A stretch of DNA of 64,000 nucleotides, taken from assembly GCA_963675665.1 (NCBI GenBank), contig OY776510.1:2016001-2080000 (forward strand), read 5' to 3'. A program made the position numbers and the translations under genes. The notes below the pieces were generated by a model, which saw only the letters and a list, made by a program, of their open reading frames with translations, had not been told where the DNA came from and made no database searches. This document shows positions 27,348-52,984 of the stretch, one piece after another. Source of the stretch: Spirochaetia bacterium (GTDB lineage: Bacteria; Spirochaetota; Spirochaetia; UBA9216). Within the stretch, counting starts at the first letter, position 1. Every line of letters starts with the position of its first letter.

Positions 27348-29735
27348 ATGACCAAAAGGATACAGAAAGAGCGCGACAGGATTCTCAAGACAAAACCGGG
27401 AATCTGTACCGAAAGAGCGTTTTTTTATACTGAAGCATATAAAAAGTATGAAAGCAGCCCGGTAATCATCAGGAGAGCGTATGCTTTGAAAGATACTCTT
27501 GAAAGGATGAGCATCAGAATAGATCATGATGAACTGATAGTCGGAAACCATTCTTCAGCTGTATATTCAGCCCCGATCTTTCCGGAGTATGCTGTTGAAT
27601 GGATAAAAAACGAAATCGATGATTTTGAAAATCGTACTGGTGATGCATTTTATCCTGATGAAAAAACAAAAAAGGATTTACTGGAAATCTGCGAATACTG
27701 GACGAATAAAACCACCCTTGATAAGGGACATGCCCTAATGACTGAAGATTTGCAGGCAATCCATGAGTCGGGAATAATCCGGGCGGAGGGTAATCTGACT
27801 TCCGGTGATGCACATATTGCTGCAAATTTCAGAAAGATCCTGGACAAGGGGCTTGGCTGGTTTATTGAGCTCACCGGTAAAAAGCTGGAGCAGACAGGAT
27901 TTGTTACTGAAGAAGAAATAAAGAAACGGCAGTTCTACAGTTCTGTTCTGATAAGTCTGAAAGCTTTCAGTACCTTTATTACCAGGTTTGCCGTTTTGGC
28001 TGCCGAATTGAAAGAATCCGAGGCTGATTCAGCCAGAAAAGCCGAGCTGGAGCAGATTGAAAATATATGTGGACAGATTGCATGGGAAAAACCCCGGACC
28101 TTCTACCAGGCATTACAACTCAGCTACTTTGTCCAGCTTGTGCTTCAGATTGAAAGCAACGGGCATTCCCTGTCGCTTGGCAGGCTTGATCAGTATCTTT
28201 ATCCTTTTTACAGGGCGGACAGGGATAGCGGTCTGATAACCGATGAGTTCGTGATGGAGCTGCTGGAAAGTACCTGGCTGAAGCTTGTAAGTATGAAGAA
28301 AATCAGGTCATGGTCGCATACCAGGTTTTCAGCAGGCGGTCCGCTTTATCAGAATGTGACAATCGGGGGCCAGTTGAGAGACGGCAGCGATGCCGTAAAT
28401 GAATTGTCTTATCTCATCCTCCGCTCCGTAGGCGAAACAAAACTGACCCAGCCTAATCTTACAGTAAGATTTCATCCGGGAATCAGCAATGACTTTTTAA
28501 TGGAATGTGTAAAGGTTATCCAGCTTGGTTTCGGAATGCCGGCATTCAACAATGATTCTATTGTTATTCCGGCCTTTCATAACCTTGGGGTTGAAGAGGA
28601 AGATGCCTGGGACTATTCGGCAATCGGCTGTATCGAGGTTGCGGTCCCCGGAAAATGGGGATACCGCTGTACAGGAAAGCATTTCTTGAATTTCATGAGG
28701 GTTTTTCTTGCCGCGCTGAACGACGGAACTGATCCGGTAAGCGGCAGGCAGTTTCATAAAGGAAACGGGAAACTGACTGAATTTACCGATTTTTCACAGG
28801 TGCTTGAAGCCTGGGACCGGCAGGTGAGGTTTTATGCGAAAGCCGGTATTGCCATTGATACCGCTATAGATATTGTTCTGCGTGATGAAGCGCCTGATCT
28901 TCTCTGTTCCGCATTTACCGACGACTGTATTGAACGCGGGCTTACCGTTCACGAGGGCGGATGCAAGTACGATTTCGTTTCGGGGTTGCAGGTGGGTATT
29001 GCAAACCTGGCTAACTCTCTTGCAGCGGTAAAAAAGCTTGTTTTTGATGAAAAACGGATTACGGCCGACGAACTGCTTGGCGCCATGAATAATGATTTTT
29101 CAGGAACTGAGGGTGAAAAACTGCGGCAGGTTCTGCTGAATTTTGCTCCGAAATACGGAAATGATGATGATTATGTAGACAAACTGCTTGTGCAGGCGTA
29201 TGCATCGTATCTTGACGAGATAGAAAAATACCCCACCATTCGGGAAGGAAGCGGCGCTATCGGCTGCCGCTATTACGGCGGCACCTCAAGCATTTCGGGT
29301 AATGTCCCCGCCGGGGCGGTTGTTCCGGCAACGCCGGACGGCAGAAAAGCCTGGAAACCCCTTGCAGAAGGCGCATCCCCGTCGGCCGGATCGGATTTAA
29401 ACGGCCCGACTGCTGTTATGCGGAGTATCAGCAAGCTTCCTACCGAGAAAATTCTAGGCGGGGTTCTGCTGAATCAAAAACTGATTCCTTCTGTGCTTGA
29501 AACGGAAAGCAACAAGGAAAAACTTGCCTCAATGCTTCACGCATTTTTCGATAATATGAATGGCTGGCATATTCAGTACAATATTGTTGACCGGGAAACT
29601 CTGCTTGAAGCACAGGAAAAGCCTGAAGAATATCACGATCTGGTAGTCAGGGTAGCCGGGTACTCGGCATTTTATACCAACCTGTCGACTGAAACACAGA
29701 ATGATATTATTGCAAGGACTGAACAGACGATATAA
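27348..29735 (+). CDS. Glycyl radical enzyme, YbiW/PflF-like
   Basis: RVAGYSA glycyl motif, GCIE single-Cys loop followed by PGKWGYRCTG, EGNLTSGDAH, KIRSWSH, QIESNGHS. Confidence 0.9.
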   Translation: MTKRIQKERDRILKTKPGICTERAFFYTEAYKKYESSPVIIRRAYALKDTLERMSIRIDHDELIVGNHSSAVYSAPIFPEYAVEWIKNEIDDFENRTGDAFYPDEKTKKDLLEICEYWTNKTTLDKGHALMTEDLQAIHESGIIRAEGNLTSGDAHIAANFRKILDKGLGWFIELTGKKLEQTGFVTEEEIKKRQFYSSVLISLKAFSTFITRFAVLAAELKESEADSARKAELEQIENICGQIAWEKPRTFYQALQLSYFVQLVLQIESNGHSLSLGRLDQYLYPFYRADRDSGLITDEFVMELLESTWLKLVSMKKIRSWSHTRFSAGGPLYQNVTIGGQLRDGSDAVNELSYLILRSVGETKLTQPNLTVRFHPGISNDFLMECVKVIQLGFGMPAFNNDSIVIPAFHNLGVEEEDAWDYSAIGCIEVAVPGKWGYRCTGKHFLNFMRVFLAALNDGTDPVSGRQFHKGNGKLTEFTDFSQVLEAWDRQVRFYAKAGIAIDTAIDIVLRDEAPDLLCSAFTDDCIERGLTVHEGGCKYDFVSGLQVGIANLANSLAAVKKLVFDEKRITADELLGAMNNDFSGTEGEKLRQVLLNFAPKYGNDDDYVDKLLVQAYASYLDEIEKYPTIREGSGAIGCRYYGGTSSISGNVPAGAVVPATPDGRKAWKPLAEGASPSAGSDLNGPTAVMRSISKLPTEKILGGVLLNQKLIPSVLETESNKEKLASMLHAFFDNMNGWHIQYNIVDRETLLEAQEKPEEYHDLVVRVAGYSAFYTNLSTETQNDIIARTEQTI

Positions 29736-29761
29736 AAAGAGGCTGGTTTTCAGCCTCTTTT
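29734..29761. terminator. Bidirectional Rho-independent terminator
   Basis: AAAAAGAGGCTG-GTTTT-CAGCCTCTTTT between convergent genes. Confidence 0.85.
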
Positions 29762-29771
29762 ACATTGCCGG

Positions 29772-30218
29772 TCAATATCGGGCTTTTTCCGCCTGTATAT
29801 CATAAAAAGCCTCCGCACCCTTTTCTTTTATGATTCCCCCGTTTTCAAGCCATCGTTGATAGAGGTTTTCTTTAAGGCCGGATTTGTCACAGGGGAATTG
29901 CCGGCATTCACCGCAAAAATCCGCATCCTGTTTCACGAAACAGCTCTTTATTCCGCATCCAGGCAGGCAGTTTTTACCGCCGGCACGGCAGCCGTCGCAA
30001 CCGGCATTTGCAAAAAATGAGAGGATTTTCTCAAACGCTTCATACTGGGAAAAAGGTTCAAAAAAAGATGACATTTTTTCCGCCATCCTTTTATAGTTGC
30101 CGAGAGAAGATAACAGGGCCCGGCTCTGTTCCGATATTTCTCCATTGTTAAATGATGCGCACCTTGAACAGTCAAGTCCGCAGGGAGCAAGTTTTTCCAG
30201 AAGTTCATCTCTTGTCAT
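29772..30218 (-). CDS. Cys-rich DUF3795-like protein
   Basis: APCGLDCSRC, CDGCR, CGIKSC, FCGECRQFPC; AAGGAG RBS before MTRDE. Confidence 0.75.
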   Translation of the reverse strand: MTRDELLEKLAPCGLDCSRCASFNNGEISEQSRALLSSLGNYKRMAEKMSSFFEPFSQYEAFEKILSFFANAGCDGCRAGGKNCLPGCGIKSCFVKQDADFCGECRQFPCDKSGLKENLYQRWLENGGIIKEKGAEAFYDIQAEKARY

Positions 30219-30307
30219 GTTTGTTCTCCTTATAGGGCACCTCTGATATGATGTGACCCATGTCAAGTTAAAATATCCAGGTTTTATCTATAAGATCCCC
30301 CCCCTGT

Positions 30308-30506
30308 CCAGGACAGGAAGAAAGATAGAACAACGTTTATGCGGCGATAGACCACTCTGATATTCGCGGATTGGTTACCGCAGGTCAATGGGATCGTCGG
30401 GAGCTGCCTCTGTCTAAAACCGAGGATCAATATTATTATTGCCTCATAGAGGTGCCGAGGGTTCTCCTTTATCACTGTTGTTGTTCTATCCATCCTTCTG
30501 TCCTGG
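30308..30506 (-). ncRNA. Predicted bridge RNA (seekRNA) of the IS110 element
   Basis: Long closing stem (CCAGGACAG..GATAGAACAAC / GTTGTTCTATC..CTGTCCTGG) encloses two stem-internal-loop-stem arms whose loops match the target and donor/junction sequences. Confidence 0.8.
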
Positions 30507-30530
30507 TAGCTTATTAACCAACTATCGAAG

Positions 30531-31634
30531 TCATGCGACTTCTGTTCTACCTACCATCATTCCCCAAATAAATCCTGATAATTCTCTGGCAACTGCCGTA
30601 ACAGTTTTCTGAGGGCATACCCCTCTACGAATCATCCTGAAATATTTCTTACTCAACCTTCTGCCGGCTTTATCAGCATAAGCTATTGTTTCAGCAGATT
30701 GTCCTTTCCTTCTCGCTGTCAGTCGTTTCGATGGCGAATACCTTTGGTAATGCCAGCTTGATTCCACTAACAGCCGTCGTAGCCTGGAGTTGCCGGCCTT
30801 CGTAATCCCGCCAAGCTTCCGGCCCTCTCCGCTTGAGTATTCTGACGGCACAAGTCCAAGATACGCCATGAAGGATTCCGCTTTTTTAAATCTTCTGAAA
30901 TCTCCTATCTCGCATACAAATGTTAATGCTGTTAATGTCTCTATACCTTTGAAACATCGAAGCCGGGATACCCTTTCTTTATATCTGTCTTCAGCAGCAA
31001 TCTCTTCTATTTTTTCCTGCAACCGTTCAATCTTTTCCTCTAATTCCACAATCGCAAGATAATATTCTTTTAAAACTTCTTTATGCATTACCTGTTCAAA
31101 CTGCAAGTTTTTCAACCAGGTTCGATGCGCCCCTGTCCAGTACTTTTTCCCAATATCATATTTCTTCCCGTTCCTTAGCAGAAACTGTAAGAGCCTCTGT
31201 TTCTGTTTCCTCAAATCAATTTTCATATCGTTACACATCCTCATGTAATCACGAACTGATTCATCTGTGCGTGTCGGTATATTCACCGGTGTTATTTCCT
31301 GATTCCTTAATGCTCTGGCTAATTTGACTGCATCCCTCTTGTCTGTCTTTATTCGGTCTCCGGGTTTCCTCGGCAATAATGATGGTGCTGCTACGTAACA
31401 GATAATTCCCATATCTTCAAGTAATCTATAAAGTGTAAATCCTGTAGGGCCTGCTTCGTAACAACACAGAATATTTTCTCCATTCTCTTTAAGTCGCTTG
31501 AAGAATCTTTTAATATTTCCGGGTTCGTTCCTGAGCTCTCTTTCAAACTCAGGATTCTGATAATTATCTCTGAATACCGCTACTGCGATTGATTCCTTGT
31601 GGACATCCATCCCTACATAAATTACACTATTCAT
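30531..31634 (-). CDS. IS110-family recombinase/transposase
   Basis: RuvC-like DEDD residues (GMDVH, YEAG, KTDKRDA), coiled coil, Tnp20 domain with GLVPSEYSSG serine motif and ITKAGN; GGAGG RBS. Confidence 0.95.
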   Translation of the reverse strand: MNSVIYVGMDVHKESIAVAVFRDNYQNPEFERELRNEPGNIKRFFKRLKENGENILCCYEAGPTGFTLYRLLEDMGIICYVAAPSLLPRKPGDRIKTDKRDAVKLARALRNQEITPVNIPTRTDESVRDYMRMCNDMKIDLRKQKQRLLQFLLRNGKKYDIGKKYWTGAHRTWLKNLQFEQVMHKEVLKEYYLAIVELEEKIERLQEKIEEIAAEDRYKERVSRLRCFKGIETLTALTFVCEIGDFRRFKKAESFMAYLGLVPSEYSSGEGRKLGGITKAGNSRLRRLLVESSWHYQRYSPSKRLTARRKGQSAETIAYADKAGRRLSKKYFRMIRRGVCPQKTVTAVARELSGFIWGMMVGRTEVA

Positions 31635-31872
31635 AGTGGCCTCCGTTCCTTTGTATGTGGCGTGTCTGCGCTTTGCCATTAGCCATTGTGTAGGCTAATC
31701 CACGATTTTGCAAACACGGCGGTCACTTCATATTGTCTAATAACCCTAAATTGGGCTTATCAGAGGTGCCTTGGAGTTTACTTATTTCCTTATCAGTTAA
31801 TAAGTAAACATCCACAGTACGTCTAAGGAAGACTTCTAAAAACTGCAGTTTTTAGAAGTCCCCTATAATAAG

Positions 31873-31897
31873 GATGCATTAAAGAAGTTAAAGGTGC
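31873..31897 (-). promoter_or_regulatory. Possible ECF-sigma promoter (GCACC-15 nt-GCATC)
   Basis: Immediately downstream of the ECF gene; in the reconstructed pre-insertion allele it abuts the DUF3795 RBS. Confidence 0.4.
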
Positions 31898-31910
31898 GCA
31901 AAAAATTGGT

Positions 31911-32690
31911 TTATTCGGATTTTTTTAGCATGGAGCCTATGGCAAGAGCTGTCTTTTCATACCAGGAGATGTCGGGTTTTCTTTCCGGAAGATTTCTGAA
32001 AAGAGATATTACCTTCTGCATTGTTTCCGGATCGCTTTTTTCAGAGTAAGCAGGATCGGTAAAATCCGGCGGACCGCCATGTTTTCGACCTTCTTCACGC
32101 AGGGTTTCCCTGTGTCCGGAGAACTCAACCCAGGCCCTGCAACTGCAGGAATTTTCCGGTAGCACCCATTGGCAGTGATGCCCGAAGAAGGCATTGAGAT
32201 TCTTTCTTGCGCGAAAAAGAAGCGATTTCACTGATGAAAGGGATAGTTCCAGCAGGGCTGCTGCCTCTTCGATTGAAAGGTCGAGCATATCGACGAGAAT
32301 AAAAGCTGAACGCTGTGCCAGGGTGAGTCTGGAGGCCATTGCTATGAAGCATCCGTCCTGCAGTTCCCTTACGGACTCTTCAACCTCAACCTCATGATCC
32401 GGCAACGGCGAAATATCCGCAAATTTATCTTCAAAACCGTCTTCAGGTTGCATAATTCTCCCGGCTTTTCGCTGTGAAAGAAGATAGTGGTTAAGGCAGA
32501 TACTTCTGAGCCAGCCTGCAATTTTTTTCCTGTCTGCAAGCTGGCTGCGTTTCTCCCAGGCCGACAGAAGCGTCTGCTGGGCAAGGTCTTCAGCCTTGTG
32601 GACATCGGCACAGAACCTGAACGCTGTTGTATAGGTGTAGTTTATATACGCTGTAAGTAATTCTCTAAAGCTGTCGTCGTCAATTCCCAT
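31911..32690 (-). CDS. ECF sigma factor with Cys-containing C-terminal extension
   Basis: Region 2 (AEDLAQQTLL, GWLRSICLN), region 4 (QRSAFIL...SVKSLLFRAR), then CQWVLPENSCSC. Confidence 0.88.
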   Translation of the reverse strand: MGIDDDSFRELLTAYINYTYTTAFRFCADVHKAEDLAQQTLLSAWEKRSQLADRKKIAGWLRSICLNHYLLSQRKAGRIMQPEDGFEDKFADISPLPDHEVEVEESVRELQDGCFIAMASRLTLAQRSAFILVDMLDLSIEEAAALLELSLSSVKSLLFRARKNLNAFFGHHCQWVLPENSCSCRAWVEFSGHRETLREEGRKHGGPPDFTDPAYSEKSDPETMQKVISLFRNLPERKPDISWYEKTALAIGSMLKKSE

Positions 32691-32705
32691 AATATTTTCC
32701 TGTAT

Positions 32706-34022: not shown

Positions 34023-34059
34023 CAGAGAATTATAATATTCTTTTATGAAAATTAACAGG

Positions 34060-34080
34060 CTGCAGTTTTCAAAAGTCCCC
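34060..34080. repeat. Degenerate right end of the MITE-like repeat
   Basis: CTGCAGTTTTCAAAAGTCCCC versus CTGCAGTTTTTAGAAGTCCCC at 31843-31863. Confidence 0.55.
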
Positions 34081-52792: not shown

Positions 52793-52873
52793 CAGGCATG
52801 TGGAGAGCGGCTATAAAATGCAAAAATTAGTTAATAAATACAATATATATCATTTTTTGAGGCATAAACTATA

Positions 52874-52984
52874 GGTTAATTGGAGTTTGCTTATTACATT
52901 ATCAGTCAATAAGTAAACATCCATTACATCCGGGGTAGTCTTCAAAACTAAAGTTTTATAAAACTGCAGTTTTTAGAAGTACCC
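52874..52984. repeat. Second copy of the MITE-like element, TATA-flanked, lacking the first hairpin
   Basis: 52880-52923 matches 31771-31814 at 40/44; ends AAAACTGCAGTTTTTAGAAGTACCC-TATA; TATA also at 52870-73. Confidence 0.8.

Follow-up and report, generated by a model that had tools for sequence, protein, structure and literature searches.

Analysis of a 64,000-nt stretch of a Spirochaetia bacterium genome (assembly GCA_963675665.1, contig OY776510.1, forward-strand positions 2,016,001 to 2,080,000; hereafter the window) revealed that the interval between an extracytoplasmic function (ECF)-type sigma factor gene (31911-32690, minus strand) and a DUF3795 gene (29772-30221, minus strand) is occupied by two nested mobile elements. 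The outer one is a miniature inverted-repeat transposable element (MITE), and the inner one, which we call ISa, is an insertion sequence (IS) whose features place it in the IS1111 group. The evidence makes it very probable that ISa is an RNA-guided element aimed at the terminal repeat of an IS5 lineage and its MITEs, and that at this locus the MITE was followed by the IS. The parts of the nested structure are as follows.

30231..30234, no strand: left TATA copy of the 4-bp target-site duplication of the MITE, read from the sequence
30235..30244, plus strand: outer 10 bp of the MITE left terminal inverted repeat, GGGCACCTCT, severed from the MITE remainder by the IS (sequence; X9 contig)
30245..31738, minus strand: IS1111-type IS by sequence, 1494 bp with one CT core, equivalently 30243-31736 (seven copies with identical ends GATATG...TTGTCT; natural 1494-bp skip)
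31739..31863, plus strand: MITE remainder, from what is left of hairpin 1 through hairpin 2 to hairpin 3, which carries the right terminal repeat ...TTTTTAGAAGTCCCC
31864..31867, no strand: right TATA copy of the MITE duplication, read from the sequence

The MITE spans 30235-31863, measures 135 bp without the IS, and has TATA on either side. The IS entered at a CT core within the MITE left terminal inverted repeat; this core is found at 30243-44 and again at 31737-38, and the IS length of 1494 bp counts one of the two. Rejoining the MITE arm gives GGGCACCTCT+AATAACCC..., and uninterrupted copies elsewhere in the genome read GGGCACCTCTAATAACCCTAAATTGGG (e.g. 2935002-2935169); these copies, together with a contig that lacks the IS (run X9, below), make the restored arm more than a paper reconstruction. 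In the reading direction of DUF3795, the MITE follows a conserved bipartite promoter-like motif after about 7 nt and immediately precedes the ribosome-binding site (RBS) of the gene, and the IS has the same orientation as DUF3795. The first-pass annotation, made from the letters of the window, had described an IS inserted in the end of a TATA-flanked MITE between a promoter and an RBS, and this description holds with small coordinate corrections. The element that it had sized at about 135 bp, with imperfect terminal inverted repeats and TATA on both sides, is 135 bp long, has termini that agree at 13 of 16 positions (GGGCACCTCTAATAAC versus the reverse complement GGGGACTTCTAAAAAC), and is bounded by TATA at 30231-34 and 31864-67.

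Three allelic states of the locus (empty, MITE only, and MITE plus IS) are found in public assemblies. Contigs of four public runs were compared with window positions 29700-32700. In organism B (run X9; 22 of 542 letters differ), one contig runs from 30241 straight to 31736 and thereby lacks exactly 1494 bases; the joint contains three ambiguous bases and restores GGGCACC+TCTAATAACCC, which is the MITE without the IS. In run X4 (marine metagenome; 16 differing letters in 329 and 4 in 42), a contig joins 30234 to 31865, skipping 1630 bases, and represents a site with neither MITE nor IS that reads ...CCTTATA+ATAATAAGG...; this run also holds the IS, with loose ends that match the flanks of the genome copy at 2818569. 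The sigma and DUF3795 genes are likewise adjacent, with neither element between them, in five other genomes (G002, G022, G049, G078, and G101), and where both ends could be read the spacer ranges from 54 nt (G002) to about 160 nt (G022). The comparison with relatives at the empty junction that had been proposed on first pass has thus been run, with X4 and these five genomes all lacking the element, and the nested order then suggested is borne out by the MITE-only allele of X9 and the empty allele of X4. The natural alleles place the MITE first and the IS second, an order that also fits the identities, as the IS copies are 100% identical and the MITE copies 73–88% identical to the one at this locus.

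Searching the 5.15-Mb genome with blastn revealed seven ISa copies over 1494 bp, all 100% identical (a rounded figure, one copy scoring slightly lower), at 553746, 2046245 (the copy in the window), 2621209, 2818569, 3725159, 4981509, and 5030463, together with one 68% relative, ISb. A profile built from four uninterrupted MITE copies detected 34 family loci in the same genome (nhmmer, E<=0.01). The expectation that the repeat is multicopy and a favoured target of the IS agrees with these counts, as six of the seven ISa copies share one position in hairpin 1, within a single arm of the repeat. All seven share the junctions ACCTCT-IS-AA and carry CT (possibly TCT) at both junctions, with no conventional target duplication. 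The remaining copy, at 2621209, sits in an unrelated palindrome outside the MITE, where nine contiguous positions match the predicted guide of ISa (ACCTCTAAA); across the seven targets, guide mismatches number 0–3 on the left and 0–3 on the right. Read from profile coordinates, hairpin 1 is present at 21 loci, 6 occupied and 15 empty. The count of occupied and empty sites that had been suggested from the sequence gave six occupied and three empty among the nine left arms that read ACCTCT-AA. Among 12 related genomes searched, ISa was not found in 11 and the twelfth (G004) holds a 66%-identical fragment at a contig start, most of these assemblies being fragmented such that repeats may be unassembled.

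All seven ISa copies also share one absolute chromosomal orientation, which chance alone would give in about 1 of 64 cases; plus orientation is likewise common to the six host MITEs, and two of the three good empty targets are in minus orientation. A replication-linked orientation was considered and rejected, since the GC-skew origin lies at about 0.84 Mb and the terminus at about 3.54 Mb, which leaves three and four co-oriented copies per replichore.

The features of ISa itself are listed below; the RNA entries are predictions from folding.

30531..31679, minus strand: transposase open reading frame (ORF), 382 aa as listed (Pfam DEDD_Tnp_IS110, 2.7e-13; Transposase_20, 3.5e-22)
30246..30258, no strand: subterminal inverted repeat, right end in transposase-gene sense, ATATGATGTGACC, 12/13 versus ATATGAAGTGACC
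31721..31733, no strand: subterminal inverted repeat, left end in transposase-gene sense, ATATGAAGTGACC, 13 bp
30309..30506, minus strand: predicted bridge/seekRNA core in the 3' non-coding region, with a long closing stem around target-binding and donor-binding internal loops
30446..30456, minus strand: target loop 5' strand, RNA GGCACCUCUAU; DNA GGCACCTCTAT as reverse complement, in the same sense as the plus-strand left flank plus CT core
30411..30421, minus strand: target loop 3' strand, RNA GGUUUUAGACA; DNA GGTTTTAGACA as reverse complement, complementary to plus-strand CTAAAACC
30340..30400, minus strand: donor-binding loop region; AUAUCAG equals the IS right end plus core, and CAUUGACCU approximates the complement of the left end with a 1-nt offset

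Judged by its sequence, the element at 30245-31738 is an IS1111-type member of the IS110 superfamily. Its transposase matches PF01548 (2.7e-13, the N-terminal DEDD/RuvC-like domain) and PF02371 (3.5e-22, C-terminal); the true start is likely M16, at the ATG 31634-31632 preceded by GGAGG, which would give a protein of 367 aa. The protein also matches the IS621 and ISCro4 transposase structures, with identical residues at the D, E, D, D, and SG positions. In the alignment to IS621 (8wt6), the GxDxxK aspartate, the xEA glutamate, the KTDxxDA motif, and the YxSG serine are identical and correspond to query residues D25, E75, D113, D116, and S283, which we take to be the catalytic positions. The IS621 match is weak (E = 2e-10 overall, with 9.2 bits for the N-terminal stretch), and the nearest relatives of the transposase are found in Spirochaetota metagenome-assembled genomes. 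Beyond the subterminal repeats, ISa carries ACA plus the core on the left and C plus the core on the right, giving extensions of 5 and 3 bp when the core is counted at both ends. The IS1111 group is characterised by subterminal inverted repeats of 11–13 bp and short asymmetric extensions of 7 and 3 bp, as quoted in PMC11187229, and the extensions of ISa are not an exact match to those values. The non-coding DNA amounts to 286 nt after the stop codon (30530 to 30245) as against 59–104 nt before the start, and subterminal inverted repeats together with a long non-coding region downstream of the transposase gene are given in an excerpt of PMC11187229 (Siddiquee et al. 2024) as traits that separate the IS1111 group from IS110 proper. 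The same excerpt lists as an IS1111 trait that a loop complementary to the top strand precedes a loop matching it; ISa follows this order, with complementarity to the IS-sense top strand in its 5' loop and identity to that strand in its 3' loop.

The 3' non-coding region of ISa gave a single-sequence fold with z = -2.39, and the consensus fold of six sequences (ISa, ISb, and four relatives from other genomes with 51–76% protein identity) contains 52 pairs, 16 of them with compensatory changes. Within this conserved fold, the target internal loop comprises 11 + 11 nt between CCUC/GAGG stems, reads GGCACCUCU / GGUUUUAG, and fits the insertion site; its 3' strand GGUUUUAGACA is followed by ACA, the first three nucleotides of the IS left end. 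The first-pass reading of the guide was confirmed from the sequence, the loops being GGCACCTCTAT and GGTTTTAGACA. As a guide they spell GGCACCTCT/AAAACC, with no mismatch on the left and two on the right of the present site. Against the canonical terminal repeat GGGCACCTCTAAAAAC, and likewise against the terminal repeat of the congener G003, the mismatches fall to 0 and 1, and the guide thus fits the CTAAAAAC version better; this agrees with the first-pass view that the guide is closer to the arm of the repeat family than to the exact site. Two incidental matches were set aside. The lone Rfam match, BASRCI414 (E = 0.052, far under the gathering score), falls on a terminator-like hairpin after a glycyl-radical enzyme gene and was dismissed. 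The word GTCTCCGCTAAAACCGTGACAATAG, met in the guide scan, occurs six times within 20 kb at genome positions 4493626-4513644; this cluster is probably a repeated coding module unrelated to the IS.

Comparison of ISa with its sister ISb (genome positions 4456574-4458050, outside the window; L011, L030) revealed that loops and flanks change together. ISb is 68% identical to ISa, has identical ends, and differs from it by one base in the donor loop. Its target loops, GTAAAAAGCTG / GTCCGTAGACA, are unlike those of ISa and match its own flanks for 8 and 6 nt from the core; the flanks read ...TAAAAAAGCT-IS-ACGGGAC..., and the site GTAAAAAAGCT/ACGGGACG is single-copy. As read from these sequences, ISa and ISb are a natural reprogramming pair inside one genome. 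Three of the four relatives from other genomes (L004, L006, and L007) have both flanks, with loop-flank matches of 6/4, 7/5, and (5 of 9)/6 nt, respectively; the fourth (L005) stops at a contig edge and was left out of this comparison.

The target of ISa belongs to a modular family of non-coding repeats with full copies of 135–170 bp. Its modules are hairpin 1, in which ISa inserts, a short hairpin that is optional, and hairpins 2 and 3, the last of which holds the right end, and many family loci are solo 36-bp palindromes or fragments. The terminal repeat varies, with GGGAACC and CTAATAAC as variants and GGGGACTTCT as a right-end variant. Perfect 4-bp duplications flank seven of the nine complete copies (TATA, ATAA, ATTG, TAAA, ATCC, TTAA, and ATAT), the exceptions being those at genome positions 4993751 and 2818569. 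Other copies are 73–88% identical to the one in the window, and searches of 12 related genomes found the family in 6. In the congener G003 (G003:C10), matching the terminal-repeat pattern of the MITE led to an IS of 1200 bp; its 18-bp terminal repeat GGGCACCTCTAAAAACTA is perfect, its duplication is TTAA, and its DUF772 and DDE_Tnp_1 ORFs assign it to the IS5 family; four further termini of this type lie at contig ends, as expected of a multicopy IS. By sequence, this element is likely the autonomous relative of the MITE, with which it shares its termini and not its internal sequence, and its terminal repeat is likely the ancestral target of ISa. In the genome that holds the window (G000), a search with the N-terminal ORF of the G003 transposase gave no match at E<=1e-5, and a search for inverted pairs of terminal-repeat-like 16-mers within 4 kb returned just MITEs, 36-bp palindromes, and long pairs of 2253 and 2936 bp. 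The 2936-bp pair was rejected as an autonomous element, as its enclosed ORFs have no transposase domain (no Pfam hit, DUF6320, and RF-1).

Other members of the family were seen in passing. A second copy in the window, at 52855-52984 (profile positions 36-154, E = 1.9e-20), lacks hairpin 1 and consequently offers the IS no left-arm target, and a solo fragment of terminal sequence (GGGGACTTTTGAAAACTGCAG, minus strand) lies at 34057-34080 between the stop codon of the upstream gene and a DUF763 gene. The solo 36-bp palindromes GGGAATCTCTAAAAACTGCAGTTTTTAGAGATTCCC, perfect or near-perfect, occur at genome positions 241322-241357, 1885873-1885908, 4557416-4557451, and elsewhere. They look like pairs of abutting terminal repeats, lack internal sequence and a clear duplication, and may be minimal MITE derivatives or a separate class of palindromes.

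In the scheme that we favour, ISa would use a bridge/seekRNA from its own 3' non-coding region to recognise GGCACCTCT^AAAACC, which forms the terminal inverted repeat both of an IS5-family lineage and of the non-autonomous MITEs derived from it, and would recombine at the CT core, probably via a circular intermediate. ISa would then accumulate in MITE left ends because its guide target is this terminal repeat. At the present locus, the 135-bp MITE inserted first, duplicating TATA, into the short 5' leader of DUF3795, some 7 nt beyond the presumed -10 box; ISa followed later, and recently, in the left terminal repeat of the MITE and co-oriented with DUF3795. The element boundaries, this sequence of events, the target preference, the conserved fold, and the joint change of loops and flanks are shown by the data, whereas RNA-guided recombination through a circle and the circle-junction promoter are expected from the family. 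The earlier suggestion that the repeat serves the IS as a 'safe harbour' may hold as a statement of function.

Several observations weigh against this scheme. No colinear pairing of the donor loop 5' strand CAUUGACCU with the IS left end was found, a 1-nt offset being needed, and an Rfam scan of 29500-32500 returned no family for the IS non-coding region; the guide RNA, its ends, and its promoter are predicted features, none of the 14 public runs listed being an RNA run. Loop and flank agree less well in two of the relatives, with one target loop of L007 fitting its flank at 5 of 9 positions and the 3' loop of L004 fitting for 4 nt. Three good left-arm targets are empty, as are several right-arm or right-end sites with two or three mismatches, which means that a guide match alone does not predict occupancy. 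Finally, the empty allele of X4 is a single contig with a depth of 2.9 and 42 nt on its short side, and it retains three bases (ATA) beyond a precise excision of the MITE and one TATA.

The favoured scheme has a bolder form, in which ISa is a specialised parasite of another transposon lineage, with a guide set to the autonomous IS5-family repeat GGGCACC... (as in G003), and arrived in the present host by transfer. Transfer from a host with the autonomous element is suggested by the commoner GGGAACC MITE of the present host, which has one mismatch to the guide; we regard this form as tentative and, on balance, rather doubtful. If it were true, each insertion would split a terminal repeat and disable that copy. 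The transposase and guide RNA of ISa would also end up downstream of the promoter next to the MITE, here one of stress-sigma type, which could couple ISa activity to a regulon.

Whether the insertion matters to DUF3795 depends on the surroundings of the nested elements, which comprise the following features.

29772..30221, minus strand: DUF3795 gene, ATG 30221-30219, RBS AGGAG 30230-26 (Pfam DUF3795, 6.6e-15)
31873..31898, minus strand: bipartite promoter-like motif CGCACCTTT-N11-TGCATC (31898-31890 and 31878-31873), conserved upstream of DUF3795
31911..32690, minus strand: ECF-type sigma gene, lying just upstream of the promoter motif and encoding a Cys-rich C-terminal extension (Pfam Sigma70_r2, Sigma70_r4_2)
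30261..30266, minus strand: outward TTGACA, 16 nt from the IS end, conserved in five of six related elements

The motif CGCA(C/T)CTTT-N11-12-T(G/C)(C/T/A)(A/G/T)TC lies 46–48 nt before the DUF3795 start in all six genomes with the gene pair. Variants are CGCATC as the first box in G078 and G101, TGTGTC as the second box in G002, and one extra spacer base in G022, and the motif is kept although the spacer has otherwise diverged, as has the GC content. This conservation supports, at the sequence level, an alternative-sigma-type promoter, in line with the ECF-like promoter joined to the DUF3795 RBS that was proposed on first pass; the adjacent ECF sigma factor may be what reads it. Neither G000 nor G002 showed the motif ahead of the sigma gene itself, and the 10-mer GCGCACCTTT occurs seven times in the genome. 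The TATA of the MITE lies 5–8 nt past the second box, close to where transcription would be expected to start, and the MITE and IS have brought the separation between promoter and RBS to 1633 bp.

Of the 401 class-sample genomes, six, with G000 among them, have the sigma factor with its Cys/His-rich C-terminal extension (L002, L003, and L035-L037), and a Cys-rich DUF3795 protein encoded behind the conserved motif follows it in all six. The two may form a conserved sigma/target or sigma/partner pair. In L036 and L037 (G101 and G078), the sigma match is reported with one in-frame TAG.

Given this setting, the insertion could be regulatory and selected, with the IS driving or re-wiring DUF3795 through TTGACA or read-through; we consider this unlikely. 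The IS and DUF3795 point the same way with no called terminator-like site between them on the minus strand, which makes read-through into the gene possible. The hexamer, placed on the minus strand at 30266-30261 as the first-pass annotation had it, faces DUF3795 from 41 nt before its start codon. However, the hexamer 17 nt downstream of it at the chromosomal site is GAGGTG, a poor -10, and the minus strand at the locus has no called sigma-70-like site. TTGACA is moreover conserved in relatives at unrelated sites, which fits a promoter of the element's own circle junction, and the other six ISa copies have no common gene context. Circle-junction promoters are known for the IS110 superfamily. 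Joined IS ends would give TTGACA-17 nt-GACAAT, in a circle junction expected to read ...CATATC-AG-ACAATATG..., and TTGACA is better read as the putative -35 half of such a promoter than as an effect on DUF3795. The gene itself could be silenced, read through from its promoter across the IS, or expressed from within the IS.

Less probable still is that the repeat is not a MITE but a family of regulatory palindromes or of elements like REP (repetitive extragenic palindromic) sequences or REPINs, spread by a non-DDE route. The modular, hairpin-built structure of the family would suit this, as would its many solo 36-bp perfect palindromes without clear duplication and the failure of the G003 transposase query to find an autonomous partner in the same genome. 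It accounts poorly for the perfect direct duplications of 4 bp, differing in sequence, around seven of nine complete copies, for termini that match the 18-bp repeats of a 1200-bp IS5-family element in a congener, itself with a 4-bp duplication, and for the empty and filled alleles at the locus.

We give very little weight to recognition of hairpin or cruciform DNA by the protein, with incidental matches between loops and targets. It would explain why all seven targets are palindromic, including the one at 2621209 outside the MITE, and why three well-matching left arms are unoccupied. Against it, the loops change together with the flanks in ISb and the three relatives with both flanks, whose targets are not this hairpin, and they lie in a conserved internal-loop scaffold; experimental seekRNA reprogramming is also reported for IS1111-type elements in an excerpt of PMC11187229. 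Hardly credible, lastly, is the copying of a pre-formed IS-in-MITE composite, since the fixed position and orientation of the IS relative to the repeat in six of seven copies is accompanied by host repeats that differ in modules (some with an extra TTTGAAACAC hairpin, some hairpin-only stubs), in 4-bp duplications, and in flanks and are 73–83% identical to the window copy versus 100% for the IS, all of which marks the insertions as independent, while organism B carries the window MITE at the same locus without the IS and one IS copy lies outside any repeat.

An RNA-guided IS directed at the IS5/MITE terminal repeat thus remains our preferred reading. The behaviour is already known for the IS family and involves no new mechanism; judged by titles and abstract openings, none of the papers met in full-text searches of open-access literature appears to describe an IS1111-type element with the terminal repeat of an IS5-family element or MITE as its target. 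The locus would offer a complete natural example of RNA-guided IS targeting, uniting seven copies with six in one MITE arm, a sister with swapped loops, the IS5 repeat of a congener, and three allelic states. The bridge/seekRNA recombinases, a set of interest for genome engineering, would also gain an IS1111 lineage that is associated with spirochaetes and whose guide and donor loops can be read, and the locus shows that insertion of one transposon into another can move a gene 1.6 kb from its promoter.

Among known systems, IS4321 and IS5075 reportedly target the terminal repeats of Tn21-family transposons. ISa resembles them as an IS1111-family element with subterminal inverted repeats that takes a fixed position and orientation in the terminal repeat of another transposon, but its target is an IS5-family IS/MITE lineage and not a Tn3-family transposon. 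IS621, ISPpu9, and ISPpu10 are reported to occupy REP sequences. ISa shares with these three a DEDD transposase, insertion at a CT core into multicopy extragenic palindromes, and, by prediction, a structured RNA that has both a target and a donor loop; unlike IS621, in which the RNA lies upstream of the transposase gene and subterminal repeats are absent, ISa would have its RNA downstream and carries a 13-bp repeat, which is the IS1111 layout. The closest parallel for the locus is IS1111 of Coxiella burnetii, for which an excerpt of PMC5896051 describes QMITE2 as an insertion hot-spot with strain-specific MITE-only and MITE-plus-IS alleles. Both cases feature a multicopy MITE as hot-spot, 'missing' MITE bases found across the IS, and two types of allele; in the Coxiella case, according to that excerpt, the target is a GTAG REP-like palindrome inside QMITE2, with duplications of 7–11 nt, whereas here it is the MITE terminal inverted repeat itself, with a 4-bp duplication and in an unrelated host. 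For the change of guide, the excerpt of PMC11187229 presents ISEc11 and ISXne4 as a natural seekRNA loop swap, in which the stems and the donor part are kept and the targets differ. ISa and ISb would have exchanged their target stretches in the same manner, but they do so within one genome and in a different lineage, and ISb is a single copy in a non-repeated target.

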